A stretch of DNA of 64,000 nucleotides. It comes from a virus (Duplodnaviria > Caudoviricetes). The translations under genes were made by a program, and so were the position numbers. The notes beneath the pieces were generated by a model that worked only from the letters and a program-made list of their open reading frames with translations, was not told where the DNA came from and ran no database searches. The DNA lies in IMG/VR virus record IMGVR_UViG_3300022305_000326, positions 1 to 64,000 of that record. One strand, written 5' to 3'. Of this stretch, positions 9,448 through 28,674 are shown piece after piece; positions within the stretch are counted from its first letter, which is position 1, and each line of letters opens with the position of its first letter.

Positions 9448-9450
9448 TAT

Positions 9451-9702
9451 ATGGCATTCGTTCCTGCACCATCAACCGCAATAGCGGCTAGACCTTACTC
9501 GGCAGCAACAGAAAAACCTGCAACTGGGAAACTTGTGGCTACTGTTATGCCTGCTCCAGAATATGAATTCGCTGGTAGATCGTATAATCCAACTGTTACA
9601 GTTATCCCACCACAGATGTTGGCAGGAGTCTTGATTGCTGCACCAACTGTTACAAAGGTGGTTGTAAATACTGGCGCTAAAAGTGTGGGGTATGCAGGCT
9701 AA
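9451..9702 (+). CDS. Small Pro/Ala/Thr-rich protein, third gene of cassette 1
   Basis: Fills the gap exactly, with TAATG coupling to 9702. Confidence 0.55.
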   Translation: MAFVPAPSTAIAARPYSAATEKPATGKLVATVMPAPEYEFAGRSYNPTVTVIPPQMLAGVLIAAPTVTKVVVNTGAKSVGYAG

Positions 9703-10607: not shown

Positions 10608-11629
10608 TGCCAATTCCATCATATTGCGACAGTTTCATGTTGTATGATACGACTGTTTTGACTACAAAATATTTGTATATTACCCAGCAGATAGGGATAG
10701 CTACAACTGGCGGTAGAAATAATGGTAGATGCCTATCGCTAAACACTGGTACTGCTTCGTCCGTTGGAAACCCAGTTGTAGCGGGTAACAATTCTATCAA
10801 TATGGCCATAAGATTTAAATCATTGGAACTAGCTCCGAAGATTTTAATGACCCTACGTAATATAGCGAATTCCGTACACCATTTAACCGTATTATACACA
10901 TCGACTGGTCGTATCGAATTCAGACGAGGTGATTCTACTGGTACCCTATTAGCTACAAGTTCCTCGGTGTTGAACGCTAACGTTACCCATTCTATAAGCC
11001 TGAAATATACCGTAAATTCTACTACCGGGTCATTTAGTGCAAATATTAATGGTACAGCCGATTCAGGATTAACTGCATCGGGCGTCAATACACAAAATGG
11101 TGCGTCGGCAGATATCACCGCGTATTATATTGGATCAAGTACACAGAGTCCCGGCGCAGGAACATTGTTAGTTAATGATTTCGTTGTACGTGACGGATCA
11201 TTCCCATTACTTGGTGACGTTTATGTTGACGCTAAAGTTGTAACTGGACCGGGAACGTATCAGCAATTCACACCATCAACTGGCACAGACCATGCAGTAT
11301 TATTGGACGAAATTCCACCAAATACTACCGATTATGTTTCGTCAAGTACGACAGGCCACAGAGAAACCAATACAATATCACCGTTAACCGGAACACCGAC
11401 CATCTTATTTGTCCAAGCAGCAAATTACATGTATAAGAGTGACGCAGGTACAGCAATTGCCCGATCATTGATACGAAGTGGTGCAACTAATGCATTCGGT
11501 GATCCTACAACATTGTTCGGAAGTCCTACTTATTACACGACATCATTCGACACCGATCCAAATACAGGTGTTGCATGGACGGTTGCGGCTGCTAATGCCG
11601 TTGAAGTTGGTATAGAGAACGCGACCTAA
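10607..11629 (+). CDS. Lectin/beta-sandwich virion protein, paralog of 13348
   Basis: Shares TTGGR.NG, GTLL, DEIPP..TDY.SS.TTG, KSDAG.AIAR..IR, PNT..AW, VE.G.EN with 13348. Confidence 0.6.
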   Translation: MPIPSYCDSFMLYDTTVLTTKYLYITQQIGIATTGGRNNGRCLSLNTGTASSVGNPVVAGNNSINMAIRFKSLELAPKILMTLRNIANSVHHLTVLYTSTGRIEFRRGDSTGTLLATSSSVLNANVTHSISLKYTVNSTTGSFSANINGTADSGLTASGVNTQNGASADITAYYIGSSTQSPGAGTLLVNDFVVRDGSFPLLGDVYVDAKVVTGPGTYQQFTPSTGTDHAVLLDEIPPNTTDYVSSSTTGHRETNTISPLTGTPTILFVQAANYMYKSDAGTAIARSLIRSGATNAFGDPTTLFGSPTYYTTSFDTDPNTGVAWTVAAANAVEVGIENAT

Positions 11630-11631
11630 TC

Positions 11632-12318
11632 ATGCCAGTTTCGACCGATTGGAGACTAAGGTTTCCCTCAAGCTATAACGCAAATGGTTATTTAGGGTTG
11701 GCCGAAATAGAAATGCGCGCAACTATCGGTGGTGCTGACGAAACCACAGGAAGAACGGCAAGTGCATTTATATTTTTGGGCGGATTCCCGCCAAGTAATG
11801 CAATCGATAACAATTCCGCGACTTTCTATACAACGGGTGGAAATTCACCGCCTGTTGGTGGACATTGGATAGCTGTAAATTTTGCATCAGCAATTCAGAT
11901 TGATCAGGTATTGGTTCAAGTTCGACCAGATGGTTTCAGAGAAGACCCTAAAGATATGGTTGTTGAATATCTTGACGGTACAGTATGGACTCCATATTGG
12001 AATTGGTATTTCACGACAGCTTGGACGGCAGGGGAATCCAGAACAGCAGACGTTGTTTCCGCATCCGTACCAGCAACAGAGCGACTTTCACAATCTAGTG
12101 CTGATCTAGTATATTCAGGAACACCATCAATTAGACTTTCACAATCTAGTGCAGAATTACCTTACTCTGCACTCCCTTCAATACTACTCAGTCAGTCTGG
12201 TGCTGATATTGTCTATAACACTACACCAGAAATAGTATTGAGTCAATCTGCGGTAGAATTTGTCTACTATATCAACCCATCTGTATCGCGTAGAAGATTA
12301 ATGACTGTTATCAACTAA
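11632..12318 (+). CDS. Discoidin/F5-8-like carbohydrate-binding domain plus four 17-aa SQS repeats
   Basis: PSNAIDNNSATFY...HWIAVNF...PKD..VEY.DG..W pattern; C-terminal LSQSSA repeats. Confidence 0.55.
   Translation: MPVSTDWRLRFPSSYNANGYLGLAEIEMRATIGGADETTGRTASAFIFLGGFPPSNAIDNNSATFYTTGGNSPPVGGHWIAVNFASAIQIDQVLVQVRPDGFREDPKDMVVEYLDGTVWTPYWNWYFTTAWTAGESRTADVVSASVPATERLSQSSADLVYSGTPSIRLSQSSAELPYSALPSILLSQSGADIVYNTTPEIVLSQSAVEFVYYINPSVSRRRLMTVIN
12083..12270 (+). repeat. 51-nt (17-aa) tandem repeat, four copies
   Basis: gactttcacaatctagtgc identical at 12083 and 12134; protein units LSQSSAD / LSQSSAE / LSQSGAD / LSQSAVE. Confidence 0.85.
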
Positions 12319-12333
12319 CAGCAGCCTATATTT

Positions 12334-12341
12334 GATAAATA
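12334..12341 (+). promoter_or_regulatory. Late promoter box GATAAATA
   Basis: Intergenic, ~25 nt upstream of 12367. Confidence 0.6.
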
Positions 12342-12366
12342 TAATACAATTTAGAAGAGTACATAA

Positions 12367-13335
12367 ATGTTACTGAACGGAAATTTAATTTTACCCGGAA
12401 CCGTATATGTTGGAATATCTCCAACATTGCCAGAACAGGTCGCAAATAAAGCATATGTTGATGGTCTTTTGGGTGGCTTCATAGCTCGTTCAGGCGACTC
12501 TATGACTGGACAGTTGATATTGTCTGGCGCACCAACTAATCCATTAGCGGCTGCAACGAAAGCATATGTTGATAGTGTCGTTAATAACGGGATATCAACA
12601 GAGGGCGGAACATTCACTGGACCAGTGTATCTATATGGTCCACCAACACAACCATCAGAAGCTGCTACGAAAGCATATGTCGATAGCGTATCAAATACGG
12701 TAGGAGAAAATCTAGGAACTGGTGTTGGTATATACGCACAGAAGGTTTTATCATCATTACAATTCAAATCATTAACTTCCGGAACCGGAATAACGATAGA
12801 TGATATCGGTAACGAATTGGTCATAAATTCTACGTCGTCAGGTACAGCATTTGACCCTGCCGATTATATTGCCGTAGCTGGTGGTACAATGATAGGGTCA
12901 CTGTACCTATCAGGCGATCCTGTAACTGGACTAGAGGCAGCAACTAAGGATTACGTAGATACTAAAACCGCATTTCCTGCATTTGATGTTCATGCATATT
13001 ATCCGGGAACAGTTCCATCTAGTACAAATATTGTCAGAAATCCCGTCGCTCGTGATGTCACATTTGGTGCTAATTTCGCTTCAAGTTACGCAACGGCATC
13101 GGTAGCTGCAACTGCTGAAACCACATTTATAGTAAACAAAATTGTCGCAGGGGTTGTGACTCAGATAGGAACCATCGTATTTGCCCTCGGGACAACAACT
13201 GGCACATTCACAACTACTGGCGGTCTGGCTATAACCATAGTTGCTGGTACTGTAATAAATATATTATCACCAGTAGTTCCAGATTTAACACTTAGCGATG
13301 TTGGGATCGCACTTCACGGAACTAGACTAAATTAA
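12367..13335 (+). CDS. Fibre-like virion protein, cassette 3 leader
   Basis: Four (A)(T/N)KxYVD repeats; LQFKSLTSGTGITI motif; C-terminal domain homologous to 9702. Confidence 0.65.
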   Translation: MLLNGNLILPGTVYVGISPTLPEQVANKAYVDGLLGGFIARSGDSMTGQLILSGAPTNPLAAATKAYVDSVVNNGISTEGGTFTGPVYLYGPPTQPSEAATKAYVDSVSNTVGENLGTGVGIYAQKVLSSLQFKSLTSGTGITIDDIGNELVINSTSSGTAFDPADYIAVAGGTMIGSLYLSGDPVTGLEAATKDYVDTKTAFPAFDVHAYYPGTVPSSTNIVRNPVARDVTFGANFASSYATASVAATAETTFIVNKIVAGVVTQIGTIVFALGTTTGTFTTTGGLAITIVAGTVINILSPVVPDLTLSDVGIALHGTRLN

Positions 13336-13347
13336 TTGGAGATTTAA

Positions 13348-14376
13348 ATGGCATTAATAGCAGGTGATGGTATTGGATATTATGCAGCAGCACAGGTTCC
13401 GTTAAAATGGACTGCTGGCGCATCACAATACGAAGTATTTACGACTGGTGGTAGAGCTAACGGACCAAGACTTAGATTAAGTTTTGGATTTTTCGGTGGA
13501 TGGGTACGTCGAATCGTATCCGGAAGTAATACTGAATTGATCGTTGGCGTTCGTTTTAAACCAGAATCATTCGATTGTCCAATCTTAGGATTCAAGAATA
13601 TCGGAACAAACTCTGTTCATGTTCAATTAATGTTGGATAGTGCTGGGCGTGTAAAGGTCAATCGCAATGGAGTTAATGGTACTCTTTTAGGTACTGGTGC
13701 AACCCCAATTATAATGAACGGATTGACTTATATCGAAGCGCGAGTAAATATCAATGATACTACTGGTTCGGTAGAAGTTCGATTAAATGGATCGACAACT
13801 CCAGATTTATTACTGACTGGAATAGACACTCAACAAGGTGCCGATCCAATCATTGACATGTTCTATCTTGGTGGTGATACATCATTCGGTGGAGCACCAG
13901 CAAGCTATTGTGACTTCTATCTTTGCGACACTACGGGATCATCGAATAACACATTTCTTGGTGATATTAAGGTCAGTTCACTTATTCCTATCGGAGATGG
14001 ATTCTATCAGGCATTCACGCCATCATCGGGGACAACTCATCACCACATGATCGATGAAATTCCACCAACATTAACGGACTACTTGTCGAGCGCAACAACT
14101 GGACAAAAAGAAAGTGTCACATTGACATCTCTTGGTGCTGCGTTGTCAATTAAGGCAATTCAGGTACATAGTTATTTGACTAAATCTGACGCTGGTTCTG
14201 CGATTGCAAGACAATTCATAAGAACAGCATCGACCGATTATAATGGTAATTCTTTGACACTATCAACGGACCCATTATACGTTACAACTATATACGAACA
14301 GAACCCGAATACCACAGCGGCATGGGGATTGAGTGAAGTCAATACTGTTGAAATTGGACTTGAGAATATTACCTAA
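13348..14376 (+). CDS. Lectin/beta-sandwich virion protein, paralog of 10607
   Basis: Colinear similarity with 10607 over the full length; SD ggag upstream. Confidence 0.6.
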   Translation: MALIAGDGIGYYAAAQVPLKWTAGASQYEVFTTGGRANGPRLRLSFGFFGGWVRRIVSGSNTELIVGVRFKPESFDCPILGFKNIGTNSVHVQLMLDSAGRVKVNRNGVNGTLLGTGATPIIMNGLTYIEARVNINDTTGSVEVRLNGSTTPDLLLTGIDTQQGADPIIDMFYLGGDTSFGGAPASYCDFYLCDTTGSSNNTFLGDIKVSSLIPIGDGFYQAFTPSSGTTHHHMIDEIPPTLTDYLSSATTGQKESVTLTSLGAALSIKAIQVHSYLTKSDAGSAIARQFIRTASTDYNGNSLTLSTDPLYVTTIYEQNPNTTAAWGLSEVNTVEIGLENIT

Positions 14377-14647: not shown

Positions 14648-14851
14648 ATGAACAAAAATAAAAAAACCATATTACTCAAACTCAGCAGAATTTTCAAACA
14701 GCCATCGACATACTCGGCAATATGTGCGTTGTTGGTCGCATCTAAATTTGGAATTCATATTGACCAAGGATTTATCACAGCTATTACAGACTTCGGAATA
14801 GTTGTGGCTGGTGCAGTCGGAATCTGGGTAGACGAAGCAGCACCACAGTAA
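14648..14851 (+). CDS. Small membrane protein, putative holin (2 TM segments)
   Basis: Basic N-terminus, KQPSTY motif, two hydrophobic segments, 67 aa. Confidence 0.5.
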   Translation: MNKNKKTILLKLSRIFKQPSTYSAICALLVASKFGIHIDQGFITAITDFGIVVAGAVGIWVDEAAPQ

Positions 14852-16158
14852 TGTATTTCTCTGGATTGACATTCTATCAGAAACAATTACCGACTTGTTT
14901 TGGTTCGGTCGATTCGTTCTATGGAATGACCGGAAGTTCACTCACATTCGAACAGGTTGATGCGGTAATTCCAATCATAGATGGAGTCGTAACAGAAACC
15001 CCACCGAATCTTGCTGTTAGTATAGATTTGGTTGATTCTAGTTGCGTCAGTAAAATTGACATTAGACCATCAGGACCACTTGTCATATCTGATACATTTA
15101 CTGGTGTCAACGGTACTGGAATATCACTCCATAGCTCTGAAGTTGGTAGTGGCTATATCAAACAGTATATTAATGCACCAGATACAATGGTAATCGTTGA
15201 CGGTAAACTACAGACGGACGTTGCTCAGAATGGTGGTGGACCATCAGTATTCAGTAACCTATCTAAGAACCCTTTGACAAATTTCTATGTGGAATTTGAT
15301 GTATACTATTCCCCATCAAGCAATAGTGAAATTATATTCGGTTCGTTGTACTACGACTACTACCCATCTAGAATAGATTTAGGGTCAACCAGAATAATTA
15401 ATTTTTACGAAAATACATTAAACATATACGCAGATACGACAACGAATACATTCCAATTCTACAGTCGTGATAACGCAGTATATAATCTATCAGATTTCGG
15501 TATCGTATTACAAACCACGCTACCATATAAAGTCAGAATAGAAATTACAGAAAAATTCTTCACCAGAGTCTACTGTAACGGGATATTGATCTTTACCGAA
15601 TACCGCACATCTACAATAGTTCCAGATTATTTTGAAACTAATCATACGATGCTCGGCGTTAGAGAATATGACACCTTCGAAAATGCACCAAAATTTGACA
15701 ACTATAAAGTCGGGTTAATTGGTACAGTTTTTATGACTGCTGACTCTTTCATTTCGAGATTCGATATGTCATCCGACCTTGTAAATAATTTGGTATTTGG
15801 TGCGCGTATATCTATCGAAGACCCGACACCATTCCCACTCGAAATTGTCGATAATGTTGTGGCCACTAACATTCCATGGGGTAATATCGGATATGCATGT
15901 GAATTGTATCTCGGTGACGATGCCACAACGTTCAATCTGAATCTTACTGGTGTAGAAGTTGGTTATAGATATATTCAAATACACAATGATCCAGCAAAAA
16001 CCTACCCGACATTCACGTATTCAGTTAACGGTGGAACCACCGCAGCTATAACATACGGATTAACAGGCGTATCTTTATATGGATCGCACGTATCGAATAT
16101 AAGATTTTACTGGAACGGCACAACTATGACATACGAAGCTGTACATCTGACACCATAA
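14851..16158 (+). CDS. ConA/LamG-like lectin-domain virion protein, paralog of 16160
   Basis: DTFTGVNGT, NPLTNFYVEFDV, VYCNG, FDNYKVGLIGT. Confidence 0.5.
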   Translation: MYFSGLTFYQKQLPTCFGSVDSFYGMTGSSLTFEQVDAVIPIIDGVVTETPPNLAVSIDLVDSSCVSKIDIRPSGPLVISDTFTGVNGTGISLHSSEVGSGYIKQYINAPDTMVIVDGKLQTDVAQNGGGPSVFSNLSKNPLTNFYVEFDVYYSPSSNSEIIFGSLYYDYYPSRIDLGSTRIINFYENTLNIYADTTTNTFQFYSRDNAVYNLSDFGIVLQTTLPYKVRIEITEKFFTRVYCNGILIFTEYRTSTIVPDYFETNHTMLGVREYDTFENAPKFDNYKVGLIGTVFMTADSFISRFDMSSDLVNNLVFGARISIEDPTPFPLEIVDNVVATNIPWGNIGYACELYLGDDATTFNLNLTGVEVGYRYIQIHNDPAKTYPTFTYSVNGGTTAAITYGLTGVSLYGSHVSNIRFYWNGTTMTYEAVHLTP

Positions 16159-16159
16159 T

Positions 16160-17689
16160 ATGATTAATTTAACTGCTTCATTGACTACACCACCGACTAA
16201 TGATTCCAAGTCTATAAATTTCAGATACGAAAGATCGTTTTCTGAACCCTTAGCAGATACGATGAATTTTAGCGTGAGTGATGGGTCAAACATCCCTGCT
16301 GATGTTTACACCGCACCAATTGGTCCCGGTGAAGAAGGATATTGGGCAACTAGATTGATATGGACCGATGGCGTAATGTCAACTGAAGCTGTGTGGGTGT
16401 CAAATGGCATCGTTCTACACTACGATACATTCACCGCGATAAATGGAACAAAAATTGTTAATTCTCCATATTTCCCGGATAAAGGACTACCGTACTATTA
16501 CGGTAATGAAACGCATCCATTAAGCACTAGAACTTCTGGTGACGGTACGGCTTTGCAGGATGATTGGAATGGTTTGAGAATAACCAATAATGGGCTACAG
16601 CAGTTAACGCAGCCCGTAATTGAATCTGCATATTTCAGAGAATTGTATATCTCTATTGGTACAGAGAATCCAGTTACAAATTTCTATCTGGAATTTGATG
16701 TCACATGGTACGAACCAACTGTTGACGATGAAAGTTATTGGTCATTATACATCGGAAACGGTTCTATAAAAAAGAGAGTATTTGTCGGGTACGCACCAGA
16801 CGTTTTCCATGACAGGGGTGAAACTTGGCATCAAATAGAATATAACGGGTATAGTGGACCCGGTGTTAACTATACCGGATTTTACTATCAAAACGCACCG
16901 GCTACAATATATTTGGGTGAATTGATTGGCGGTGTCGTTTATGGTCAGCCGATGAGATTTAGAAGTGAATATATCAAAGACGTTGGCGTTAAGCATTACA
17001 TAAATGGACAATATGTTGGAATGTATGCTGGCACTCTTGGCTATTTCTATGCAGACAGAATAGGGCTTGAGTTTATAGCATATACATTCCCATCGAAAGA
17101 TTTTATACCAGCGGTATTCGACAATCTTAAAGTTGGTCTGATCGGTACAGAATTCCTAAATTTGCAGACGTATGAGAATAATATGTCTAATATTGGGCCA
17201 TTCCTGAATACAGTCTCAGATGCCCCTAAATGGCCGACCAGATATAAGACATCTGATATCATACTGACGGGGGAATTCGTCGTTGATAAGTATGTTGTCC
17301 CTAGCACTATTCCTATTAGCTGGACTAAAGATGGTCCGAAGTCACAACTATTCACACAGTACGACAACACCGGATTCTTCCATTTCAATATTTCGACTCT
17401 GGAAACCCTCAACACAATATTCCTAGACTTCACTGATCTTCCAGATAGAGTGAGTAGAAAATCTTTTGGTATAATTCGTAACGGCCAGAATAGAGTAAAT
17501 TCTCCGAACATCGGTACGCCAGCATATCTAGATGCACTAATTGTCAAGTATAGAGTCGGAACATCAGGTCCATATAAAACAGTCGCATTCAATGAAACCT
17601 TGACCAACGTATCCCAAGTATATTTGATTTTCGAAACTGATGGATTCACAGTTTCCGTTTATGATGCCAGACACTCTATATACACATAA
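16160..17689 (+). CDS. ConA/LamG-like lectin-domain virion protein, paralog of 14851
   Basis: DTFTAINGT, NPVTNFYLEFDV, HYING, FDNLKVGLIGT. Confidence 0.5.
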   Translation: MINLTASLTTPPTNDSKSINFRYERSFSEPLADTMNFSVSDGSNIPADVYTAPIGPGEEGYWATRLIWTDGVMSTEAVWVSNGIVLHYDTFTAINGTKIVNSPYFPDKGLPYYYGNETHPLSTRTSGDGTALQDDWNGLRITNNGLQQLTQPVIESAYFRELYISIGTENPVTNFYLEFDVTWYEPTVDDESYWSLYIGNGSIKKRVFVGYAPDVFHDRGETWHQIEYNGYSGPGVNYTGFYYQNAPATIYLGELIGGVVYGQPMRFRSEYIKDVGVKHYINGQYVGMYAGTLGYFYADRIGLEFIAYTFPSKDFIPAVFDNLKVGLIGTEFLNLQTYENNMSNIGPFLNTVSDAPKWPTRYKTSDIILTGEFVVDKYVVPSTIPISWTKDGPKSQLFTQYDNTGFFHFNISTLETLNTIFLDFTDLPDRVSRKSFGIIRNGQNRVNSPNIGTPAYLDALIVKYRVGTSGPYKTVAFNETLTNVSQVYLIFETDGFTVSVYDARHSIYT

Positions 17690-17728: not shown

Positions 17729-18127
17729 ATGGCAGTTACAGATCAGTTGGTTCGATATAAAGACATAGACCTTACTCTTGCCTCTGTACCATCAACAGGT
17801 GACATTTCTGTTTATACGGACGAACGTGCCATCACACAGTCGATCAAAAATCTAGTTTTGACTAGACCATACGAAAGACTGTTCCAAGAAAATATTAGAT
17901 CACAGGTGTATTCAAGTTTATTCGAACTTAATACGCCTATAACACGTAATGCTATAGAACAGAGTGTAATAAACGTAATCACAAACTACGAGCCTAGAGC
18001 TATCGTACTTTCCGTGATTGCAACAAATTCACCAGACGAGAATGGTTATAAACTAACTATTACATATATTGTACGCACGACGACACGACAAGTTACATTT
18101 GATTTCATTTTATATAGAGTTCGATAA
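17729..18127 (+). CDS. gp25: Baseplate wedge subunit
   Basis: YKDIDL, AITQSIKNLVLT.PYERLF, I.NYEPR. Confidence 0.93.
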   Translation: MAVTDQLVRYKDIDLTLASVPSTGDISVYTDERAITQSIKNLVLTRPYERLFQENIRSQVYSSLFELNTPITRNAIEQSVINVITNYEPRAIVLSVIATNSPDENGYKLTITYIVRTTTRQVTFDFILYRVR

Positions 18128-19977
18128 TGGCCGATAATACAACTACAGGATTGACAGCGAATCAAAATTTCGTTGAGCTTGACTTTTTCAATCTAAAACA
18201 AAGCCTGAAGAACTATCTAAAAAATAGACCAGAATTTTTAGATTACGATTTTGATGGATCGACTATAAATCTATTGTTGGATAGCATGACGTTCAACACA
18301 CAGAACAATGCATTCTATTTTAACCTATTGGCATCTGAATTCTTCCTTGGAACCGCACAAAAGCGTGAATCCGTAGTATCAAGAGCGCAGGAACTAGGAT
18401 ATACCTCACGTTCCGCTGCATCAGCCAAGGCTATTATAGACATTAAATTAACATCTAGTAATATCGTAAACACTAGCCTGATCATTCCGGCTGGTACGGT
18501 ATTCACGACATCTGTTGATGGTAAGACCTACAAGTTTGTCACATTAGATGATGTTGTGTCAACTGATCGTGACCTTAGCACCCTTGCAAATAAGGCAATA
18601 TTCTCATTCTATGGTGTTGCCATTTATGAGGGTAGCCCACTCGTTTCAACCACAATCATCAGTAACGCAACATTATCTGGCGTCGTAATTCCTAACCAAA
18701 ATATCGATACTTCACTGTTGAGAGTTACCGTAGCCGAAAGTGCATCAGTAGACTTAGCTATCGCGTACAGTGTCGGTACGAATTTGTTGGATATTACTCC
18801 GAATTCTAATGTATATTTTGTCGAAGAAATCAACGATCAGCTTTATAGAATCTCATTTGGTGATGGTACAATCGGAAAGGCCATTGCTGTTGGAAACAAG
18901 GTTGTTATCAAATATCTCATTACTTCAGGTTCTAAGCCGAATGGTGCAAGGCTGTTCACTCTGGCATCAACCATTTCAACGGTCACCGGAGTTTATAGTT
19001 ATTCTGTTGTGCAGCCGGCTCAAGCTGGTGCAGATATTGAATCTATCGAATCAGTTCGATTCAACGCGCCTTTAATTTACTCCGCACAGAACAGGGCAGT
19101 TGTTCCAAAGGATTATCTGGCCATCATCAACCGCGAATATACAGGGCTTAAAAGTGTCGTTGCATGGGGCGGTGAAGATAATGTACCGATTGCATTAGGA
19201 TACGTTTTCATTTCAATTAAGCCTAATGATAGAGAAGCACTGACCAATTCTGAAAAATTGGATATTGAGACAAATCTAAAGGACAACTATTGCCCGGCAG
19301 CTATCATACCAATCGTCGTTGATCCAGAACTAATCTATCTGAATATTACAGCAACAGTAAAATACAATCCTACCGTAGCTGTGGCTGGTCCAGATTCTAT
19401 CAGAGGTAAAATCACATCCGCTATAGTAAACTATGGAGCAACTGACCTAGACCAATTCTCACAGTATTTCAGATATTCGAAATTATCTAGACAAATCGAC
19501 GGTGCTGATATTGCGGTCAATAACAACAATATTGTTGTTGAAATGGAAAAGCGTTTCGTTCCTAGTCTTGTAACTGCACGTTCGTATAACTTCTTCTTCA
19601 GAAATCCTGTAGAAGCGGATGCTGGTGTGTTAACTTCAAATAAATTCACGTATAAAGATTCTGCGGACGTTGAGTATCCAGATGCGTATTTCACAAATGA
19701 TATCAACGGTGTCATATCAGTCAATTACACATTAAATAACACTACTCTAGTTGCAAATCCTAATATCGGTAGACTCGATTTTGCAACTGGATCAATATCA
19801 ATCAATAATTTTCTTGCTACACGTTTCGGTGGAACTTTAGACCCACTTGGAAAAGTAACGGATATAAGACTAAAATTGATTCCATTAAACCAAGACATTT
19901 ACCCTGTACGTAATGTTATTCTCGTCATAGATCAGGGTGGAGTAGTGGTAAACATGTTACCGGATAATATTTCATAA
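18127..19977 (+). CDS. gp6: Baseplate wedge subunit
   Basis: ELDFFNLKQSLKNYL, DYDFDGS, FGDG.IGK, ESIES.RFNAP, QNRAV, WGGEDN. Confidence 0.93.
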   Translation: MADNTTTGLTANQNFVELDFFNLKQSLKNYLKNRPEFLDYDFDGSTINLLLDSMTFNTQNNAFYFNLLASEFFLGTAQKRESVVSRAQELGYTSRSAASAKAIIDIKLTSSNIVNTSLIIPAGTVFTTSVDGKTYKFVTLDDVVSTDRDLSTLANKAIFSFYGVAIYEGSPLVSTTIISNATLSGVVIPNQNIDTSLLRVTVAESASVDLAIAYSVGTNLLDITPNSNVYFVEEINDQLYRISFGDGTIGKAIAVGNKVVIKYLITSGSKPNGARLFTLASTISTVTGVYSYSVVQPAQAGADIESIESVRFNAPLIYSAQNRAVVPKDYLAIINREYTGLKSVVAWGGEDNVPIALGYVFISIKPNDREALTNSEKLDIETNLKDNYCPAAIIPIVVDPELIYLNITATVKYNPTVAVAGPDSIRGKITSAIVNYGATDLDQFSQYFRYSKLSRQIDGADIAVNNNNIVVEMEKRFVPSLVTARSYNFFFRNPVEADAGVLTSNKFTYKDSADVEYPDAYFTNDINGVISVNYTLNNTTLVANPNIGRLDFATGSISINNFLATRFGGTLDPLGKVTDIRLKLIPLNQDIYPVRNVILVIDQGGVVVNMLPDNIS

Positions 19978-22900
19978 TGGCAGATTTCACATTAACAAAG
20001 ATACTTGGTGATTTAGTAGGTCCATCTTTATCTAATTATTTTCATGACCAGACTGTGGCATCTGTCACATGGTCAGTTGTACATAATCTAAACGATCTGA
20101 ATGCTCTCATATATTTCTATGATGATGCAGCAAAGATCAATATCGTATCTGCAATAAACATCGATTCTAATACAACAGAATTGACGTTCAGTGAGCCGAC
20201 TATTGGTGGTATTCTAGTAATATCCCCAAGACCACAAGAATTGTTTATTGCTGATATTACAGTACCAAATACTGTCATCACCGTAGAACATAATCTTAAT
20301 GAACTGTACCCTGTCGTCCAATCTAAATCATTGGCTGATGGATCGGTCATCCCTGATGATGTACGAGTTGTCAACGCGAATACTGTAGAATTAACGTTCT
20401 CTGTAAGTTTCACAGGACAAATATCAGTATTCTCAGTATCTCCTGAATATTCAAACGTTGTGCGAAGTGTCTACCAGAGAATAGTCGCAAGCACTTCATG
20501 GATAATCAACCATAATCATAATGACTTAACACCAATTTTCATATTCTATGATGAGAATTCTAGAGAAATCTATCCCGATGAAGTGATATTCGTTGATGCG
20601 GATACTATGGTGGTTAACTGGGCTGTTCCTCAGATGGGATCGGCTATCATCGCATCATTGAATTTAATTATTTCCAAGAGTTGTGGAACTGCTGGAACTG
20701 GATTGGACCCTAACCCAGAGTTTGCAGAATCATTCCTATACGAAAATACGTCAACAAACACAAGCATTACAGTCGTTCATGACCTGAATGACATTCTGCC
20801 TCTTGTAGAAATATATGATGATAGCGGCTCTGTAATTCTGGCAAACGAAGTCACGGTTATTGACGTTAATACTGTACTGGTAAATTTATTCGAACCACAA
20901 AACTGCAACATTCGTGTCACGACTGTTCAGGGTAGTTCTGCATTCATTTCGGTTCAGGCCAACCCAGTCAATATCTGGTGTATCCCTCATGGTCTGAATG
21001 ATTCACAGGTAATGATTCAGTTCTATGACTTGAATCGTAATAAGATAGTTCCGCAAACATCTGTTAACCTAAACAACAATTCTACCGAGGCTACATTTTT
21101 AATAGCTCAGGCAGGTTATGCGAAGGTCGTATCTCTAAAATATAAAATCAATAACGTTGATACGTATCTTCATGCTCAACCGTTTGTTTCGAACACTTGG
21201 TTAATCAACCATAACAAGAGAGACAATAACCCAATTCTCGCTTTTTATGATCTATCCGGTAATTATTTGATTCCGGATCAGATACTATCGGTTGACGAAA
21301 ACAATACAACTGCCACGTTCCTAAGCGCATTTCGTGGATATGCTCGATTTATAACGACTGAAAATATCGTACCTGATGTAGTCGTTGTCGATAGATTCAC
21401 CGATAGATTCAAATCAATTGTCCCATTCATTGCACTACAATTCCCTGAATTCGCTCGTGCATATGATTATGCGCCAACATCAACTGCAAAGGGCAACATT
21501 TTAGTCACATTCATGGAAGCATATTATGAATGGCTTGAACGTGCATTGCCATTGAACGAGTCGCAGGACAATATTCAGTATCAGATAAACAATGCAGATT
21601 TGATATTCAGTCTTGAGTATGGTGTCCAGAGATTCTTCGAATTATACAGAAATACCTATCTACAGTCAATTCCATATTTCTTCCAGAATGGAACAAACGT
21701 AAACCCTGCACTATTGATCAAAATAATTCGATCATTCTATCTGACCAAAGGAACTAAAAAGGCGATCAAATTCCTATTCAATTTCTTGTTCAACGATCCG
21801 ACTGCACAGATATCATACGTTACCCCAAGACTCCTAACTTCAGCCGCAGCTACAGTATCGGTTAGATCGTATGTGAGAGTAATGTTTACATCTGATTTAT
21901 CGACGGACGATAACTATAAAATTCTATTGGGTCAGACGTTGATAGGACAACAGTCGTTTACGAGAATGACAGTTCAAGGATTTAGAGTCTTCACGGTCGG
22001 TCAAAATTCTGTTCTTGAGATAGAAGTATCTAATATTTCCGGTGAATTGATCTTAGGTGAAAATCTAACTGGAACTGTAACCAACGTCGTAGGCGATCAA
22101 ACATTTACTGTCACATATCAGTTGATCCCGTATACAATCGCAGGTAAATTCTCGATAGATGCACCGGGAACAGGATATGAAAAATTCAAAACTGTATCAC
22201 TAGCCACATCAGGAAACGGACTTGGATTCAGTGCGCAGATTTACGATGTTGACGTAAATGGTGCGATAACTGATTTGAGAATCGATGATCCGGGTATCAA
22301 CTATACAGTGGCACCTACGCTGGATTTGACCAATTTGGGTGACGGTAACGCAACGATTACAATATACCCTTCAATAATCTATACCAATATAACAACTGGA
22401 ACTCGTTATTCCGGTCAGGCTTCTGATATTCCAAAACAGCAGACTATAACGGTATTCACTGATTATACCTCAAGATATACGAATCTAAGAGACTCGACTA
22501 TCGGATACACCTTCTATCCTACTGTCGAAGATTTTGGACCTAACAAACTTCATGGTGTTGTTGTTGGCGAAGGTATGCAAATAGTCCAAAATTCTGATAT
22601 GACAGATTATGGATTTGCATTCACTGGTGTCAATGACGGCACATTGTCAAATGGCGTAAGTTTCGGTATATCAAATGTATTGTCTCCAATCACCCCATGG
22701 ACATTGGAAGTTAAACTAACTGCGAACTTGTTATCGAAGACTCAGAGCGTCATCGGTAAATGGGGCGCGGATTCTATTGATAGACATTTTGTTATACAGA
22801 TCGATGACAATAATAGATTGGTTGCCAGTGCTGTTATGTTTGGGTCAACGATCATCGTATTACAGGATACTGTTCCATTAAGCGGGTCTACGGATTATGA

Positions 22901-23777
22901 TATTGCGTTGGTATGGGATGGTACTGTTCTATATCTATTCAAAAATGGTAACTTTGTAACATCTGCACCATTTGCACGTATGCAGTTACCTTCTGAAAAT
23001 GTCAGTTTTTGGTTGGGTAGAGACGACGACGATAAGAATGGTAATACCCCTAACCCATTCAGCGGAACCATCTACCAAGCTCGTTTGAGTGGTGTTGCTA
23101 GATATACTACAGGATATACACCAGTAGCATACACTTTAGATGACGATACAATATCATTATATGAACTGAACGAAGTCAGAGAAGATTTGCAGATTGGTAC
23201 TGGTACAATCATAGCATCAGCACCAGATGAATACACCTACTATATCACATCACAGACTCCTATTAGTCAGTATAGAGATATCCTGAAAGCCACTGTTCAT
23301 CCAGCAGGTATGAGATTTGTCGGAAGATTCATTTTGAGTTCATATGACACTAATACCCATAAAGCTGAAATGTATCACTATTATCACCCAGATGATGCAA
23401 ATTTCAACAATCCGCTATATTCTACTTCAAGATTCTTCAAGATTTTGACGCTCAAGATTGCAACGAAACCAAACTCTGGTGATGAAACATTGACCGCAGT
23501 ATGTTCAGATTTCAATCTAAAACTTAAAATTAACCCATTGGCCATATCAGAACGTCTTGGTAGAGTTAGTGTTATCGATGATTATGGTCCATACTTGATA
23601 GATTTATTTGATACATATACATACCCGAACACGTTATTTGGTAACACAATGCCAGCAAAACCAACTGACATTGACCCAAATTCACCAAACAGAACGTCAT
23701 ACGAATCGTTTGGTTTTTACAAATTACACCATTTTAGTAAATATACTAGAGGTGGTGCTGAAGTGACAATAATATAA
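19977..23777 (+). CDS. gp7: Enlarged gp7-like baseplate wedge initiator with six N-terminal HNL repeats and an inserted LamG domain
   Basis: Between gp6 and gp8; core motifs QFPEF, FMEAYYEWLE, FY.TKGT..AI.FLF..LF, Y.Y.I.S, K.TVHPAGM. Confidence 0.75.
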   Translation: MADFTLTKILGDLVGPSLSNYFHDQTVASVTWSVVHNLNDLNALIYFYDDAAKINIVSAINIDSNTTELTFSEPTIGGILVISPRPQELFIADITVPNTVITVEHNLNELYPVVQSKSLADGSVIPDDVRVVNANTVELTFSVSFTGQISVFSVSPEYSNVVRSVYQRIVASTSWIINHNHNDLTPIFIFYDENSREIYPDEVIFVDADTMVVNWAVPQMGSAIIASLNLIISKSCGTAGTGLDPNPEFAESFLYENTSTNTSITVVHDLNDILPLVEIYDDSGSVILANEVTVIDVNTVLVNLFEPQNCNIRVTTVQGSSAFISVQANPVNIWCIPHGLNDSQVMIQFYDLNRNKIVPQTSVNLNNNSTEATFLIAQAGYAKVVSLKYKINNVDTYLHAQPFVSNTWLINHNKRDNNPILAFYDLSGNYLIPDQILSVDENNTTATFLSAFRGYARFITTENIVPDVVVVDRFTDRFKSIVPFIALQFPEFARAYDYAPTSTAKGNILVTFMEAYYEWLERALPLNESQDNIQYQINNADLIFSLEYGVQRFFELYRNTYLQSIPYFFQNGTNVNPALLIKIIRSFYLTKGTKKAIKFLFNFLFNDPTAQISYVTPRLLTSAAATVSVRSYVRVMFTSDLSTDDNYKILLGQTLIGQQSFTRMTVQGFRVFTVGQNSVLEIEVSNISGELILGENLTGTVTNVVGDQTFTVTYQLIPYTIAGKFSIDAPGTGYEKFKTVSLATSGNGLGFSAQIYDVDVNGAITDLRIDDPGINYTVAPTLDLTNLGDGNATITIYPSIIYTNITTGTRYSGQASDIPKQQTITVFTDYTSRYTNLRDSTIGYTFYPTVEDFGPNKLHGVVVGEGMQIVQNSDMTDYGFAFTGVNDGTLSNGVSFGISNVLSPITPWTLEVKLTANLLSKTQSVIGKWGADSIDRHFVIQIDDNNRLVASAVMFGSTIIVLQDTVPLSGSTDYDIALVWDGTVLYLFKNGNFVTSAPFARMQLPSENVSFWLGRDDDDKNGNTPNPFSGTIYQARLSGVARYTTGYTPVAYTLDDDTISLYELNEVREDLQIGTGTIIASAPDEYTYYITSQTPISQYRDILKATVHPAGMRFVGRFILSSYDTNTHKAEMYHYYHPDDANFNNPLYSTSRFFKILTLKIATKPNSGDETLTAVCSDFNLKLKINPLAISERLGRVSVIDDYGPYLIDLFDTYTYPNTLFGNTMPAKPTDIDPNSPNRTSYESFGFYKLHHFSKYTRGGAEVTII
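20034..21360 (+). repeat. Six tandem ~65-75 aa repeats (W/I-x-V/I-x-H-N-L-N...YD...T..F...G) in gp7
   Basis: HNLND, HNLNE, HNHND, HDLND, HGLND, HNKRD units visible in the translation. Confidence 0.85.
23736..23743 (+). promoter_or_regulatory. Late promoter box AGTAAATA
   Basis: ~48 nt upstream of gp8, inside the 3' end of gp7. Confidence 0.45.
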
Positions 23778-23790
23778 TTTAGAGGAACAT

Positions 23791-25164
23791 ATGGCAAATC
23801 CAGCATCAGCAGTCGTAACAGATCAGCTTAGAATCAGTAATGCTAAAAATTATCTGGCGGATGTTATCTCATCCAACTATTATCTAAGTATCGGTAAGGT
23901 TGACACATGGCCTGTAGAATTGAATCCCGAAATCCCTCTAGATAATACGTCATATAGAGACTACAAGACTTGGTTCGACATGCTCGGCGCCAAGAAAATA
24001 GTGACCGGGAATACGAGTCTGGTATTGAGTCGTTATAATTGGACTATCAATACCGTATATGCAGCATACGATTCAGAAGATTCCGAATTATTCAGAAAAC
24101 CATTTTTCGTTCACGTACCAAAGGTCGATGGTTCAATCAACGTATACAAGTGTATTGAACGTCCTATCAACGCCATGGGAACACCACAGCCATCGACTGT
24201 TCAGCCGTCCGATGAAAACGTAACTGGTGGCCCTAATGGTGCAACTACTTCTACTGCCGCAAGATTGGCCGATGGTTATATCTGGAAGTTTATGGGTAAT
24301 GTCAGTAGTGGTGATGTTGCACTATACGGTACTATTCAATTCGTTCCAATCAAAACAATAACAACCAATGACGGCTCTGCACAGTACCAAATTCAGCAGA
24401 ACGCAATTTCCGGTGCGATATTCTCAATCAATATCACGAACACTGGTACCGGATACACTTCAGCACCAACCGTTCAGATTAATGGTAATGGTACTGGTGC
24501 CACGGCAGTTGCAGTATTGTCTGGAAGTAATGTCGTCAGAGTTGACATGACCGCATTTGGTACTGGTTACACTTATGCAACGATTGTGCTATCAGGTGGC
24601 GGTGGAACAAATGCTACCGCAAAAGCTAACATCGCACCAGTCGGCGGTCATGGAAAGGATGCAGAACGTGAGCTTGGCGCATATTTTGGAATGATCTTTG
24701 TTCAGTTAGATAATACTGAAAATTCAACTCTACCAGTAGACAATGGGTTCAGAAGAATCTCACTTATAAAAAATCCACTGTTATACGGCACATCAACCCT
24801 AGCAACATCATTGAATTACCGCCAGACCTATAGATATTCAGTTACAAGCCAATCCGTAACGCCATTCCAAATCAATGAAACAGTTTCACAGGCTGTCACG
24901 AATCAGACTGCCGTTGTTGTCGATGTGGATACGGTCAATAACTTCATATACCTAACGTCACAAAGCAACATTTTCGACACAACCAATAATAGATTGGTAA
25001 CTGGTACAACTTCAGGGGCAACATGCATATTTTCTGCTCAGGTTGCCGGTAACTTACCGGGACTACAACCAAACTCCGGTATTATCGGTTTCATCGAAAA
25101 TCGAAAAGTTGTAAATAGAGCTTCAGACCAGTCTGAAGTCATCCAAATTGTAATTGAATTTTAA
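23791..25164 (+). CDS. gp8: Baseplate wedge subunit
   Basis: SA.VTDQLRI.NA, RYNW, VYKCI, DGYIWKFM, P.GGHG.D...ELGA, ENRK.VNR..DQ.E.I.IVIEF. Confidence 0.92.
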   Translation: MANPASAVVTDQLRISNAKNYLADVISSNYYLSIGKVDTWPVELNPEIPLDNTSYRDYKTWFDMLGAKKIVTGNTSLVLSRYNWTINTVYAAYDSEDSELFRKPFFVHVPKVDGSINVYKCIERPINAMGTPQPSTVQPSDENVTGGPNGATTSTAARLADGYIWKFMGNVSSGDVALYGTIQFVPIKTITTNDGSAQYQIQQNAISGAIFSINITNTGTGYTSAPTVQINGNGTGATAVAVLSGSNVVRVDMTAFGTGYTYATIVLSGGGGTNATAKANIAPVGGHGKDAERELGAYFGMIFVQLDNTENSTLPVDNGFRRISLIKNPLLYGTSTLATSLNYRQTYRYSVTSQSVTPFQINETVSQAVTNQTAVVVDVDTVNNFIYLTSQSNIFDTTNNRLVTGTTSGATCIFSAQVAGNLPGLQPNSGIIGFIENRKVVNRASDQSEVIQIVIEF

Positions 25165-25190: not shown

Positions 25191-25568
25191 ATGTTAATGC
25201 CACCATCAATAAACGACAACACGATCTCAATTTACGAAGTCGGTAAATTAAGCGCGGAAATATCTAACCTAGCATCAGTATTCAAGGAATTAAGTCAAAC
25301 AGTGAAAGAGAATGCTCGTCAAATTGATGAGAAATTCGAACGTATTAATCAACAGCTTAGAGAAATTGTTGATACCCATACTTCTCGTAGGGAATTCGAT
25401 GATTTGAAGGTCGAGGTTAATAAATTAAGAATCGAGATTGCTACAGTTAAACAGACCACCCACGACAATGCAGTAGAAAATGCGTCGAATAGATTCATTA
25501 TAAAAATAATGGGTATTGTAATTTCGAGCGCGACACTATTGTATTTTGGACTACAGGCAGTACATTAA
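25191..25568 (+). CDS. Coiled-coil protein with C-terminal transmembrane helix (possible lysis/holin-associated protein)
   Basis: Heptad-rich body, hydrophobic tail FIIKIMGIVISSATLLYFGL; SD gagga. Confidence 0.4.
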   Translation: MLMPPSINDNTISIYEVGKLSAEISNLASVFKELSQTVKENARQIDEKFERINQQLREIVDTHTSRREFDDLKVEVNKLRIEIATVKQTTHDNAVENASNRFIIKIMGIVISSATLLYFGLQAVH

Positions 25569-26317: not shown

Positions 26318-26857
26318 ATGATATCAGAAGAAACGAAGAATATATTAATCAAACAGTTGTCAGATCACGAAGGTGTAAAAAAGACACCTTACGTGGACAC
26401 TGTTGGTATCTGGACAGTTGGAATAGGACGCAATCTAAAGCGTCTATTTACTGCTGATGAAGAATTTAAAATATTCGGAAAAATATACAAATACAATTAT
26501 GAAAAATTGGTCGCCGCTCTGAAAACCAAACCGTTGACCAAAGATCAAGTCGAATATCTTTTCCTTAAAGACTTGAATGAACATCTAGAAAAATTGTATT
26601 CTGATCTTCCGTGGGTAAAAGGATTGGATGAAGTAAGACAGGCTGTTCTAATCAACATGGCTTTCAATTTAGGTAATGCTGGTCTTCTCTCATTCAAAAA
26701 TACCCTGAAGATGATAAAGGACGGTGATTACGTAGCTGCGTCTAATGCAATGCGTAGTTCAAAATGGGCATCACAGGTCAAGGGGCGTGCCGTTGAATTG
26801 TGTGATCAAATGGCGAGCGGCGAATTTGCACTTAAATACAAAAACACTAAGAGTTAA
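26318..26857 (+). CDS. T4-type lysozyme (GH24), probable endolysin
   Basis: HEG......Y.DT.G..T.GIG catalytic E-x8-D-x5-T; RQAVLINMAFNLG..GL..F; S.WA.QV..RA. Confidence 0.92.
   Translation: MISEETKNILIKQLSDHEGVKKTPYVDTVGIWTVGIGRNLKRLFTADEEFKIFGKIYKYNYEKLVAALKTKPLTKDQVEYLFLKDLNEHLEKLYSDLPWVKGLDEVRQAVLINMAFNLGNAGLLSFKNTLKMIKDGDYVAASNAMRSSKWASQVKGRAVELCDQMASGEFALKYKNTKS
26831..26838 (+). promoter_or_regulatory. Late promoter box CTTAAATA
   Basis: ~25 nt upstream of 26863. Confidence 0.45.
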
Positions 26858-26862
26858 TTTAA

Positions 26863-28674
26863 ATGGCAATTGCATACCTATTACTTCCAGCTTCTACATT
26901 CTATGATCAGGTTGATAAAATCAACGAGATCATCGATTATCTTAATGCCCCATCTTCACCGATCACGACATATGCTAACCTGACAATAAATCCGGGTCCA
27001 CTACTTGTCGGTACTACGGTCGATAACGGTGCGGCTAATACCCAATTAAGAGCTAATGCCAGATCGAGAGCATTGGACCTCTATGGCGCAGCAGCATTCG
27101 ATGACGGGTCCGCTGTAAGTCCATCAATAGCATTCAGAAATTCTATAAACACTGGATTTTACCGTCAAGGTACAAACTCAATTGGTGTCTCAACCAGTGG
27201 TGTTAACCGTATGACTGTTACCGCTGCTGGGCTGATCGGAATTGGAACACAGTCACCATCTACAGCATTACATGTTATAGGTTCTTTGACTTACACCGGA
27301 TTGAGTATAAACAATGCAAATTCATCTGGATATAATGATCTAATCGGAACAAACAGCGTAGAACGATATTACTTGTTAGGGACTCTGCCTCTCAACAATG
27401 CAGGTAATTACGGTGCCATGAAACTGAAAGGTACATTTGGTTTCTGGGTGAACGGTGGTCGATATATATTGGATGCATATTTCTCAAATAGAGACGGATT
27501 CTCTGCAACCACTAGTATACGTCGTGCTGAGAAATTATCTGCTGGGTCTATTCGTCCAGTAGTATATCAACAGACTGATGGAACAATCAGTGTTTATGTG
27601 TATTGCCCTGCCACATCGTTTCATATTTTCTCATGCGAAATTCATGATTCTATTCAGGTATCAAACAACCCGAATTACATCACGTATTCTAGCACGTTAC
27701 CAACTGGAACATTGGTCTATGACGCACTTACTGCATCCAAGGATGTTCAGTATAACACTAATGGAACGTTAACCGTAACAACAAATGTTAACAATAACAC
27801 TGGTGGTATTAAAGTAACTGACTCATTAAGTTCAATAACTGCAAGTGTTTGGGCTGGTTCGACTGGCGTTTATTTCGGTTCAGAAACAGGCATCAACGTT
27901 CCTGCTATTGTAAAGTCTAACGGTACAAATATCGTTTCATTCTCGACCTCATCTGCTGCATTCACTGTGCCGATTAATGCGCCGTCTGGGACTATTACGA
28001 CACTTGCCGCATCAACATTTTCTGCTGCAACATCCATCAGTTTAAGCGATTTCAGCGTACTTCCAACAACTCCTGCTACTACAAGAGTCGCAACTGTCAC
28101 TCAGACTGATGCAAGATACTTGAGATTAGCTGGCGGTACAATGACTGGTCCATTAATCCTAAGTGCTGACCCTACAGCAGCTTTGGGTGCTGCAACTAAA
28201 CAGTATGTTGATAATTCAACTAGTGCGGCTATTCCGACTTATATAAACCCTATTGTCGTCTTTACAAAGGAAGTTGTACCACCAGTCAGAGATGTTGGTG
28301 TTGACGATGGCGGTGGTGACTTCACTGTTAATAATGCTGGCGTTTTGACTGTTGCTAATCCGTCAAATTGGAGAACTTACTCAATCCCTAGTGGTATACC
28401 TTCAACGGCTAAGGCTATCCTTGTAAAATGCGTGTTGAGAACGAACAATTCCGCTCTCGCAATTATGGCAAGAATGCATTCAACTGCCCCAGTCTTTGTA
28501 TTGAACCACATATACGCATTGGGTGGTGGTGATAGCATCCGCGACCAAACAACGACAGTAATTCCAATACAAGTAGCTCCGGGAAATCTGTTACCATCAT
28601 ATGATCTAATTCTAATGTTAGCCAATACATCAAATTATTGGGACTATAAAGTAGTGATCGTTGGGTATCAATAA
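26863..28674 (+). CDS. Fibre protein inserted between neck genes (possible collar/whisker fibre)
   Basis: TF.DQ..KINEI N-terminal anchor; DGSA..PSIAF....TGFY, GLIGIGT.SP...LHV fibre motifs; GGTMTGPL.L.ADP...AATKQYVD. Confidence 0.6.
   Translation: MAIAYLLLPASTFYDQVDKINEIIDYLNAPSSPITTYANLTINPGPLLVGTTVDNGAANTQLRANARSRALDLYGAAAFDDGSAVSPSIAFRNSINTGFYRQGTNSIGVSTSGVNRMTVTAAGLIGIGTQSPSTALHVIGSLTYTGLSINNANSSGYNDLIGTNSVERYYLLGTLPLNNAGNYGAMKLKGTFGFWVNGGRYILDAYFSNRDGFSATTSIRRAEKLSAGSIRPVVYQQTDGTISVYVYCPATSFHIFSCEIHDSIQVSNNPNYITYSSTLPTGTLVYDALTASKDVQYNTNGTLTVTTNVNNNTGGIKVTDSLSSITASVWAGSTGVYFGSETGINVPAIVKSNGTNIVSFSTSSAAFTVPINAPSGTITTLAASTFSAATSISLSDFSVLPTTPATTRVATVTQTDARYLRLAGGTMTGPLILSADPTAALGAATKQYVDNSTSAAIPTYINPIVVFTKEVVPPVRDVGVDDGGGDFTVNNAGVLTVANPSNWRTYSIPSGIPSTAKAILVKCVLRTNNSALAIMARMHSTAPVFVLNHIYALGGGDSIRDQTTTVIPIQVAPGNLLPSYDLILMLANTSNYWDYKVVIVGYQ

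Follow-up and report, generated by a model that had tools for sequence, protein, structure and literature searches.

Six fibre-type domains at the N-terminus of a gp7-like baseplate wedge protein in a T4-like phage

In phage T4, the part of gp7, a baseplate wedge protein, that lies on the N-terminal side of its core is found at the periphery and carries gp8 and the trimeric proteins gp9 and gp10, as seen in the published T4 baseplate structures. Many environmental T4-like phages have no recognisable gp9-gp12, and we know of no account of how such phages anchor their many fibres or of how their baseplate senses the host. In this work, we describe a gp7-like protein of a rare T4-like phage, encoded in the first 64 kb (the window) of the IMG/VR virus record IMGVR_UViG_3300022305_000326, a linear record of 100,740 b with an estimated completeness of 55%. 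The locus resembles that of T4 in the order gp25-gp6-gp7-gp8 and in a weak collinear match of the gp7 core, and the part N-terminal to the core is probably peripheral here as well. However, T4 gp7 has no HNL repeats, whereas here the N-terminal arm consists of six fibre-type domains, named HNL in this text, gp9, gp10 and gp11 are undetectable, and the slot that they would occupy is empty of them. Going by the structure models, the protein is best called a wedge protein decorated with fibre-type domains, the unusual feature of which is a single-chain triplication. The literature that we searched contains no description of a wedge protein with this HNL array architecture.

The gene (19977-23777; + strand, as are all parts of the protein given below) encodes a protein of 1266 amino acids (P0001) and is flanked by gp6 and gp8 in the wedge module, as it is in T4 and in the contig of the close relative described below. 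Two PHROG families annotated as 'baseplate wedge subunit' match its conserved core (aa 475-700; 21399-22076): phrog_17744 aligns aa 475-698 with profile positions 5-201 (E 2.9e-17), and phrog_26741 aligns aa 480-701 with positions 4-208 (E 1.2e-24). With T4 gp7, BLASTP gives weak collinear alignments of aa 587-699 with T4 residues 734-828 (E 0.002) and of aa 1086-1123 with 862-899 (E 0.086), which places the array on the N-terminal side of the core; PF23786 scores 16 bits only, below its 27-bit cut-off. In addition, a concanavalin A-like or Laminin_G_3-like domain is inserted at aa 905-1041 (22689-23099; PF13385, E 8.5e-6, 26.4 bits, just below the 27.6-bit cut-off), and a PF13385-type domain is also found precomputed for both this protein and its close relative.

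The original prediction, made from the letters of the window alone, held that gp7 begins with six tandem repeats of about 70 amino acids, arranged 3+3 around a Gly/Pro linker, and both points are borne out. The repeats span aa 19-462, and a repeat profile finds each of them at E 1e-30 to 3e-34: repeat 1 at 20031-20231 (E 9.9e-31), repeat 2 at 20238-20444 (E 2.1e-30), repeat 3 at 20454-20663 (E 5.5e-34), repeat 4 at 20724-20930 (E 4.6e-30), repeat 5 at 20934-21140 (E 8.6e-33) and repeat 6 at 21153-21362 (E 2.9e-34), the last continuing directly into the gp7 core. The 3+3 layout is real because a segment of 20 amino acids separates repeats 3 and 4, whereas all other gaps measure 1-4 amino acids. 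This Gly/Pro-rich linker (aa 230-249; 20664-20723), which contains ...KSCGTAGTGLDPNPEF..., includes the motif KSCGTAGTG. The repeats are 16-34% identical to each other and share one invariant His, and they are old, diverged copies rather than a chance pattern. A duplication of a three-repeat block was considered and rejected: the pairs R1-R4 (29%), R2-R5 (25%) and R3-R6 (29%) are no closer than other pairs. No Pfam family matches aa 1-470 at E<=0.1 and no NCBIfam model matches this region, the Ig-like, FN3, Big and lectin families included.

Among 5.8 billion proteins, the only close relative of this gp7 is P0004, which also has 1266 amino acids and is encoded on a 12-kb contig (L001) with the same order gp25-gp6-gp7-gp8-x-gp13-lysozyme. 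In these two proteins alone, HNL domains arranged 3+3 form the N-terminal part of a wedge protein. Their arrays are 54% identical, compared with 79% for gp6, 81% for gp8 and, as read off the alignment, about 90% for the gp7 core at aa 475-640. Repeat 6 is the repeat best conserved between the two, and the best-conserved parts of the array are the linker and the inter-repeat junctions (...SVSPEYSNV.RSVY..., ...SAFIS.QA.P.NIWCIPHG...), a pattern that fits a fixed geometry. The motif KSCGTAGTG is identical in both proteins while the repeats that flank it are only about 50% identical. The linker, conserved beyond what a passive spacer calls for, may be where the protein bends, makes contacts or is processed.

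Other relatives have the core without the array. The gp7-like proteins of 47 IMG/VR loci match from about aa 476 onward only, except that three of them match from aa 419-442. In the relatives checked, the gp7 gene encodes 610-1040 amino acids (610-694 in two of the three) and starts at or near the core. No HNL domain was found in five short-gp7 records, including a complete genome of 164 kb, and no stand-alone or split form of the array was found among shorter proteins. The HNL array is thus a lineage-specific N-terminal addition to gp7. Two distant relatives with a short gp7 (610-694 amino acids, without HNL) have giant open reading frames (ORFs) two genes downstream of gp7, of 1827 amino acids (L002, 13814-19297) and 2342 amino acids (L020, 13583-20611), which may supply the baseplate periphery there instead.

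The domain itself is widespread. The repeat motif (W.V.HNLN...YD...D.NT..TF...G) occurs in proteins of PHROG 21918, 16122, 30556, 34633, 28944 and 27448, which comprise uncharacterised 'virion structural' proteins and fibre proteins, and PHROG 21918 matches the six tandem stretches of gp7 with E 5.6e-46. No Pfam or NCBIfam model covers the domain; its relatives give sub-threshold matches to GBD_IRG7_N only. When 1.84 billion cluster representatives were scanned in full with HMMER, 5,358 proteins matched at E<=1e-3, of which 957 reached E<=1e-10, that is, a family of at least 5,358 clusters at 50% identity. HNL is therefore among the larger unnamed phage structural domains, and defining it would improve the annotation of thousands of fibre proteins.

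Carriers of the domain look like fibres. HNL repeats adjoin tail-fibre or collagen-like PHROG regions, a Peptidase_S74 chaperone follows them in P0014 and P0035, and in many carriers (for example, P0040, P0086, P0114 and P0150) the domain forms the C-terminal end, where receptor-binding tips are usually found. BFVD proteins that match a single gp7 repeat (root-mean-square deviation, rmsd, 0.7-1.5 Å; 20-33% identity) are named 'collagen triple helix repeat', 'Peptidase S74', 'tail fiber protein' and 'lambda Stf repeat'. Because its carriers are fibre-type proteins, we regard HNL as a module, common although unnamed, from which homotrimeric phage fibres are built. By sequence and by predicted fold (rmsd about 1 Å), the gp7 repeats are the same domain as that of PHROG 21918 and its relatives; the difference is that those carriers are fibre-like proteins of any copy number that have collagen repeats, have an S74 chaperone or carry the domain C-terminally. 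Each carrier has 2-13 matched copies. In a hand tally of the best 150 carriers, two copies were found in 19 proteins, three in 37, four in 39, five in 12, six in 19, seven in 7, eight in 5, nine in 4, ten in 1, eleven in 5, twelve in 1 and thirteen in 1. A rule of multiples of three across the family was rejected on these counts, four copies being the commonest.

Sequence searches of the PDB with the repeat profile, gp7, P0040 and an alignment of the triplet gave no real match; matches to armadillo-repeat and RGL entries were spurious, being short or compositional, and a 'capsid decoration protein' (9nx3_A) aligned over the whole HNL domain at E 0.09. Against cultured phages, gp7 had no DNA match by blastn, the array matched only Phage NCTB by tblastn (31% identity), and P0114 had no match. 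The ESM Atlas returned unnamed viral clusters only. Note that phrog_24148, annotated as 'HNH endonuclease', matches gp7 aa 18-82 and many HNL carriers through its profile positions of about 190-275; this label is perhaps mistaken and could be passed on to the annotation of fibre proteins.

Everything that follows on the geometry and function of the gp7 array is prediction. The original prediction had proposed that three HNL domains act together, either as a homotrimer or as a pseudo-trimer within one chain, which is reasonable because the carriers of HNL elsewhere have the hallmarks of homotrimeric fibres. An AlphaFold2 model of aa 1-240, built from an alignment of 23 rows, has a mean predicted local distance difference test score (pLDDT) of 85.3 and a predicted template modelling score (pTM) of 0.77; the latter is high for three domains and suggests a fixed mutual arrangement of repeats 1-3. 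Independently of Foldseek, the model was compared with 48,161 PDB representatives, and its residues 14-232 could be aligned, over 194-197 residues, with single-chain trimers of adiponectin, C1q and Cbln1 (Z 4.7-5.0). The whole-triplet matches are 4dou_A, 5hzf_A, 5kca_A and 4zch_B (185-197 residues, rmsd 4.8-5.6 Å, 5-9% identity). The triplet match recurred (4zch_B, 5kca_A and 4dou_A; 185-193 residues) in a second AlphaFold2 model, which covers aa 1-480 and for which a separate alignment was used. In this second model pTM drops to 0.49 and the linker has pLDDT <50 (at aa 231-233 and 241-250), a pattern suggestive of two hinged bodies. For the triplet, Foldseek also lists the pseudo-threefold C-terminal domain of PCSK9 and the APC-beta domain.

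The single-chain pseudo-trimer is thus modelled for repeats 1-3, as a compact pseudo-threefold body and not as the extended chain of beads that would have spoken against it, and it is less clear for repeats 4-6. Compaction of tandem repeats by AlphaFold2 is not automatic, since most other tandem arrays in BFVD are not compact and superpose on one domain only; one BFVD protein has the same three-domain arrangement (TMq 0.72). The engineered single-chain adiponectin, C1q and TNF trimers and the PCSK9 C-terminal domain resemble the triplet in that a single chain places three beta-sandwiches about a pseudo-threefold axis, and the collagen stalk with a C-terminal head found in some HNL carriers recalls C1q. 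However, TNF and C1q heads are 10-strand jelly rolls, whereas the HNL domain has about 70 residues in a sandwich of about six strands, as counted from the strand list of the model, and at 5-9% identity there is no sequence similarity. The resemblance is one of geometry only, and the HNL domain is not filed here as a C1q/TNF-like head.

Among single domains, the best fold neighbours are 3h6j_A (Z 7.0) and the Pam1 tailspike (7eea_A, Z 6.0), followed by the H-type lectins discoidin I (2w94_A, Z 5.5-5.7) and 3wmp_A (Z 4.4-4.8), which have no sequence match; the R2 pyocin fibre foot (6cl6 and 6cu2, Z about 5) and the C-termini of the K64-1 and K1 depolymerases are also neighbours. Judged from the models, the best of these neighbours are small C-terminal domains, lectin-type or trimer-forming, of proteins that act on sugars or bind receptors. 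Two known docking domains appear at noise level, namely, the XD region of CBA120 TSP4 (7rfv_A, Z 5.2-5.3) and the C-terminus of TP901-1 BppU (3u6x_S, Z 4.8). All fold matches have Z<8, a range that possibly reflects a common arrangement only, and we take them as a description of shape. The literature on the phiKZ baseplate and on cyanophage A4 offered no interpretable link to HNL, and the corresponding fold matches are weak.

The proteins that occupy the wedge periphery in T4 were not detected. Neither the gp9/gp10 family (PF07880) nor the gp11 family (PF08677) has a match at E<=1 in the 100,740-b record, whereas the T4 proteins, as a positive control, gave E 2e-75 and 1e-116, and these models found nothing in two relatives, including the complete 164-kb one. 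The T4 order gp6-gp7-gp8-[gp9-gp10-gp11-gp12-wac]-gp13-gp14-gp15 is kept, except that the bracketed block is replaced with a single ORF of 125 amino acids (25191-25568), which gives sub-threshold, weak Pfam matches to coiled-coil-type families and has a counterpart of 124 amino acids in L001. Canonical gp9/gp10/gp11 genes elsewhere in the genome, an outcome that would have counted against the original prediction, are therefore not detectable in the 100-kb record or at the syntenic slot; the record being only 55% complete, this does not prove that the phage lacks them. That gp10 and gp12 can be lost from detection is not new, since gp7, gp10 and gp12 are shared by non-cyanophage T4-like phages beyond the core of all T4-like phages, and hence are not shared with the marine cyanophages of this group (Sullivan et al. 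2010, PMC3037559).

We tentatively prefer a reading in which the array contacts the host. The first 470 residues of gp7 are a lineage-specific addition made of six copies of a widespread, unnamed domain of phage fibres, predicted to be a beta-sandwich. In ordinary carriers the domain sits in homotrimeric fibres, as beads of the shaft or as the C-terminal tip. gp7 is present once per wedge, and its single chain has two successive sets of three HNL copies. Each set (repeats 1-3 and repeats 4-6) would fold into a pseudo-threefold knob, with the conserved Gly-rich linker as a hinge between the two. The knobs would be the outer arm of the wedge, in the place filled in T4 by the N-terminal domains of gp7 together with the trimeric gp9, gp10 and gp11, and they may stand in for the missing proteins. 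It is possible, although short of probable, that the knob pair does not receive fibres but is a built-in 'pin', resembling a fibre tip, by which the phage contacts the surface of its host, adhesively or in the manner of a lectin. This adhesive reading is suggested by the lectin- and receptor-type fold neighbours, by an array that diverges faster than the core (54% against about 90% identity) and by the ConA/LamG-like domain of gp7.

Several points weigh against it. The faster divergence and the tip-like position fit a docking surface equally well, at least seven other fibre or spike-like proteins encoded by the phage could do all of the host binding, and these other fibres need attachment sites, which favours a socket. 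Repeats 4-6 are modelled with less confidence (pLDDT 64-93) and without a whole-triplet match, and none of the fold neighbours, the lectin-type ones included, rises above the range of shape resemblance. In addition, the pseudo-trimer comes from shallow alignments of 23-24 rows, in which homologous repeats can mislead the inference of contacts.

The closest competitor is a fibre-docking platform, which we consider somewhat unlikely. Each single-chain pseudo-trimer would give the monomeric gp7 a threefold face for a trimeric fibre, so that two sites per wedge would functionally replace gp9, gp10 and gp11. If true, a single-chain pseudo-trimer made from a trimeric fibre domain would be an easy way to resolve the symmetry mismatch of monomer and trimer at the junction of wedge and fibre. 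The modelled pseudo-trimer of repeats 1-3, the position of the array on the N-terminal side of the core and the lack of detectable gp9/gp10/gp11, both in the record and in the complete 164-kb relative, with only the 125-residue ORF in their slot, all argue for such a platform, as do the number of fibre-like proteins that need anchors and the docking domains 7rfv_A and 3u6x_S among the weak fold neighbours. If the socket idea is right, T4 gp10, the TSP4 XD and the BppU C-terminus would be functional analogues, being small trimeric beta-sandwich modules that hold other trimeric fibres at the baseplate periphery. However, these are true homotrimers rather than single-chain triplets, their fold similarity to HNL is at noise level, and PF07880 is absent here.

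Other observations speak against docking. Most HNL copies cannot be sockets because the domain occurs 2-13 times in other fibres, often at the distal tip, and so a universal socket role is not expected. The short-gp7 relatives without HNL also lack gp9-gp11, which implies that this clade has other ways of anchoring fibres. Candidates for peripheral baseplate proteins or for the real fibre adaptors, and hence alternatives to gp7 in this role, are encoded directly upstream of gp25 by two large ORFs of 435 and 509 amino acids (14851-16158 and 16160-17689; together 14851-17689), which have no PHROG, Pfam or PDB sequence match. The 509-residue ORF appears to have a counterpart of 523 amino acids upstream of gp25 in L001, where the preceding ORF of 268 amino acids is cut by the contig end. 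The peptides proposed as plugs for the sockets, taken up below, are not a shared motif. A more specific version, in which two single-chain 'mock trimers' form putative threefold sockets into which trimeric fibres plug, providing 12 sites per baseplate and making the gp9/gp10/gp11 layer dispensable, is unlikely; its partners might be the N-termini of fibres or else, stacking like with like, the HNL-like knobs at the C-termini of P0002 and P0003, the two post-portal proteins.

A plain chain of six Ig-like beads that extends or braces the baseplate periphery through inter-wedge contacts or as decoration, with the compact triplet as a modelling artefact, would agree with the frequency of tandem small beta-sandwich domains on phage structural proteins, the free copy number of the family (2-13, with four commonest), the non-compact BFVD models of most other tandem arrays, the lower confidence for repeats 4-6 and the pairwise identities, which show no three-repeat block duplication, but it is improbable given the pTM of 0.77 for three domains, the superposition of the whole triplet on single-chain trimers in two models, and the sharp 3+3 break with its conserved linker and conserved inter-repeat junctions.

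The original prediction also placed a related domain at the C-termini of the two post-portal proteins, P0002 (59237-60772) and P0003 (60874-61641). These C-terminal domains (60554-60769 and 61420-61638, both on the + strand) are homologous to each other (BLASTP E 3e-13, 38% identity over 93 amino acids), but their kinship to the gp7 repeats is weak (E about 1e-4). The repeat profile of gp7 matches P0003 at 61441-61614 (E 1.1e-4), and it does not find the domain of P0002 at E<=1, the link of which comes from the joint profile only. In hhalign, comparisons of the C-terminal domains with the gp7 repeats gave E 1.2e-4, 2.2e-4 and 2e-3 with probabilities of 55, 45 and 13%, the second being that of P0003. 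These weak alignments are in register on the His-x-Leu-Asn and Asp-x-Asn motifs.

P0002, encoded directly after the portal gene, has by eye a long charged helical region of the coiled-coil type, then a short collagen-like or Gly-rich stretch (…GPRGLPGK…GGGFGGGGGG…) and then the HNL-like domain. In appearance P0002 is an analogue of fibritin or of a neck whisker, with its gene in the head module. At aa ~137-178, P0003 (255 amino acids) has a repeat with profile matches to PDB chains of T4 gp34 and gp12 (E 2.6e-28 to 9x3r_M). In close homologues of P0003, DUF2793 is matched at aa ~82-130. By these sequence matches P0003 is a short protein of the trimeric-fibre type.

The plug strands that had been proposed to enter the sockets did not hold up. 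KEIYTDYNF, at the start of the 60874 protein, and RDFLTNVDL, at the start of the 61643 protein, had been read as a shared N-terminal strand, and BLASTP finds no alignment between them at E<=100. A shared strand KINGTL/LLNGNL had likewise been proposed for the leaders of the three fibre cassettes, which start at 6839, 9702 and 12367; the 12367 protein lacks the first ~26 amino acids, and its LLNGNL aligns at about residue 27 of the 6839 protein, not with KINGTL. What the leaders do share is paralogy over about 100 amino acids (E 3e-21 and 3e-12), in N-terminal regions that consist of ...ATKxYVD... repeats. The 9702 and 12367 proteins also have a common C-terminal domain (phrog_11585/7049), and two of the three leaders are followed by paralogous partners of about 340 amino acids (10607 and 13348; phrog_2448). 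The three cassettes lie in a row at 6839-14376, where the GC content is slightly raised (0.41-0.43 versus 0.38).

The window as a whole carries the gene set of a T4-like myovirus in PHROG scans, and the GC content is about 38-39% across the record, the repeat region included. Upstream of the fibre cassettes lie a gp48/54-like tube cap gene (2761), a gp53-like gene (3717), a gene for a 'tail protein' of 445 amino acids (4373-5710; phrog_350), which is perhaps, as a guess, a gp27-like hub, and a gp5 homologue of 372 amino acids (5710-6828) that matches gp5 families in two parts and has no lysozyme-family match in the PHROG scan. Downstream of the cassettes and of the two large ORFs come gp25 (17729) and gp6 (18127-19977; phrog_219, E 4e-152), and gp7 is followed by gp8 (23791-25164; phrog_438, E 6e-83), the 125-residue ORF and gp13 (25568). 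Between gp13 and gp14, a stand-alone lysozyme gene (179 amino acids) and a fibre-like gene (603 amino acids) occupy 26318-28674; since the gp5 homologue has no lysozyme-family match, the tail lysozyme may be encoded separately. Downstream of the 603-residue fibre gene follow, in this order, gp14, gp15, TerL and the replication genes, and after these the genes for the sheath (54783), the tube (56554), the portal (57509) and the two post-portal proteins. The last ORF (61951-63999), which runs off the window, is large, Ala/Gly-rich and similar to tail fibres or tailspikes, with PHROG tail fibre and tail spike matches and a GC content of 0.43.

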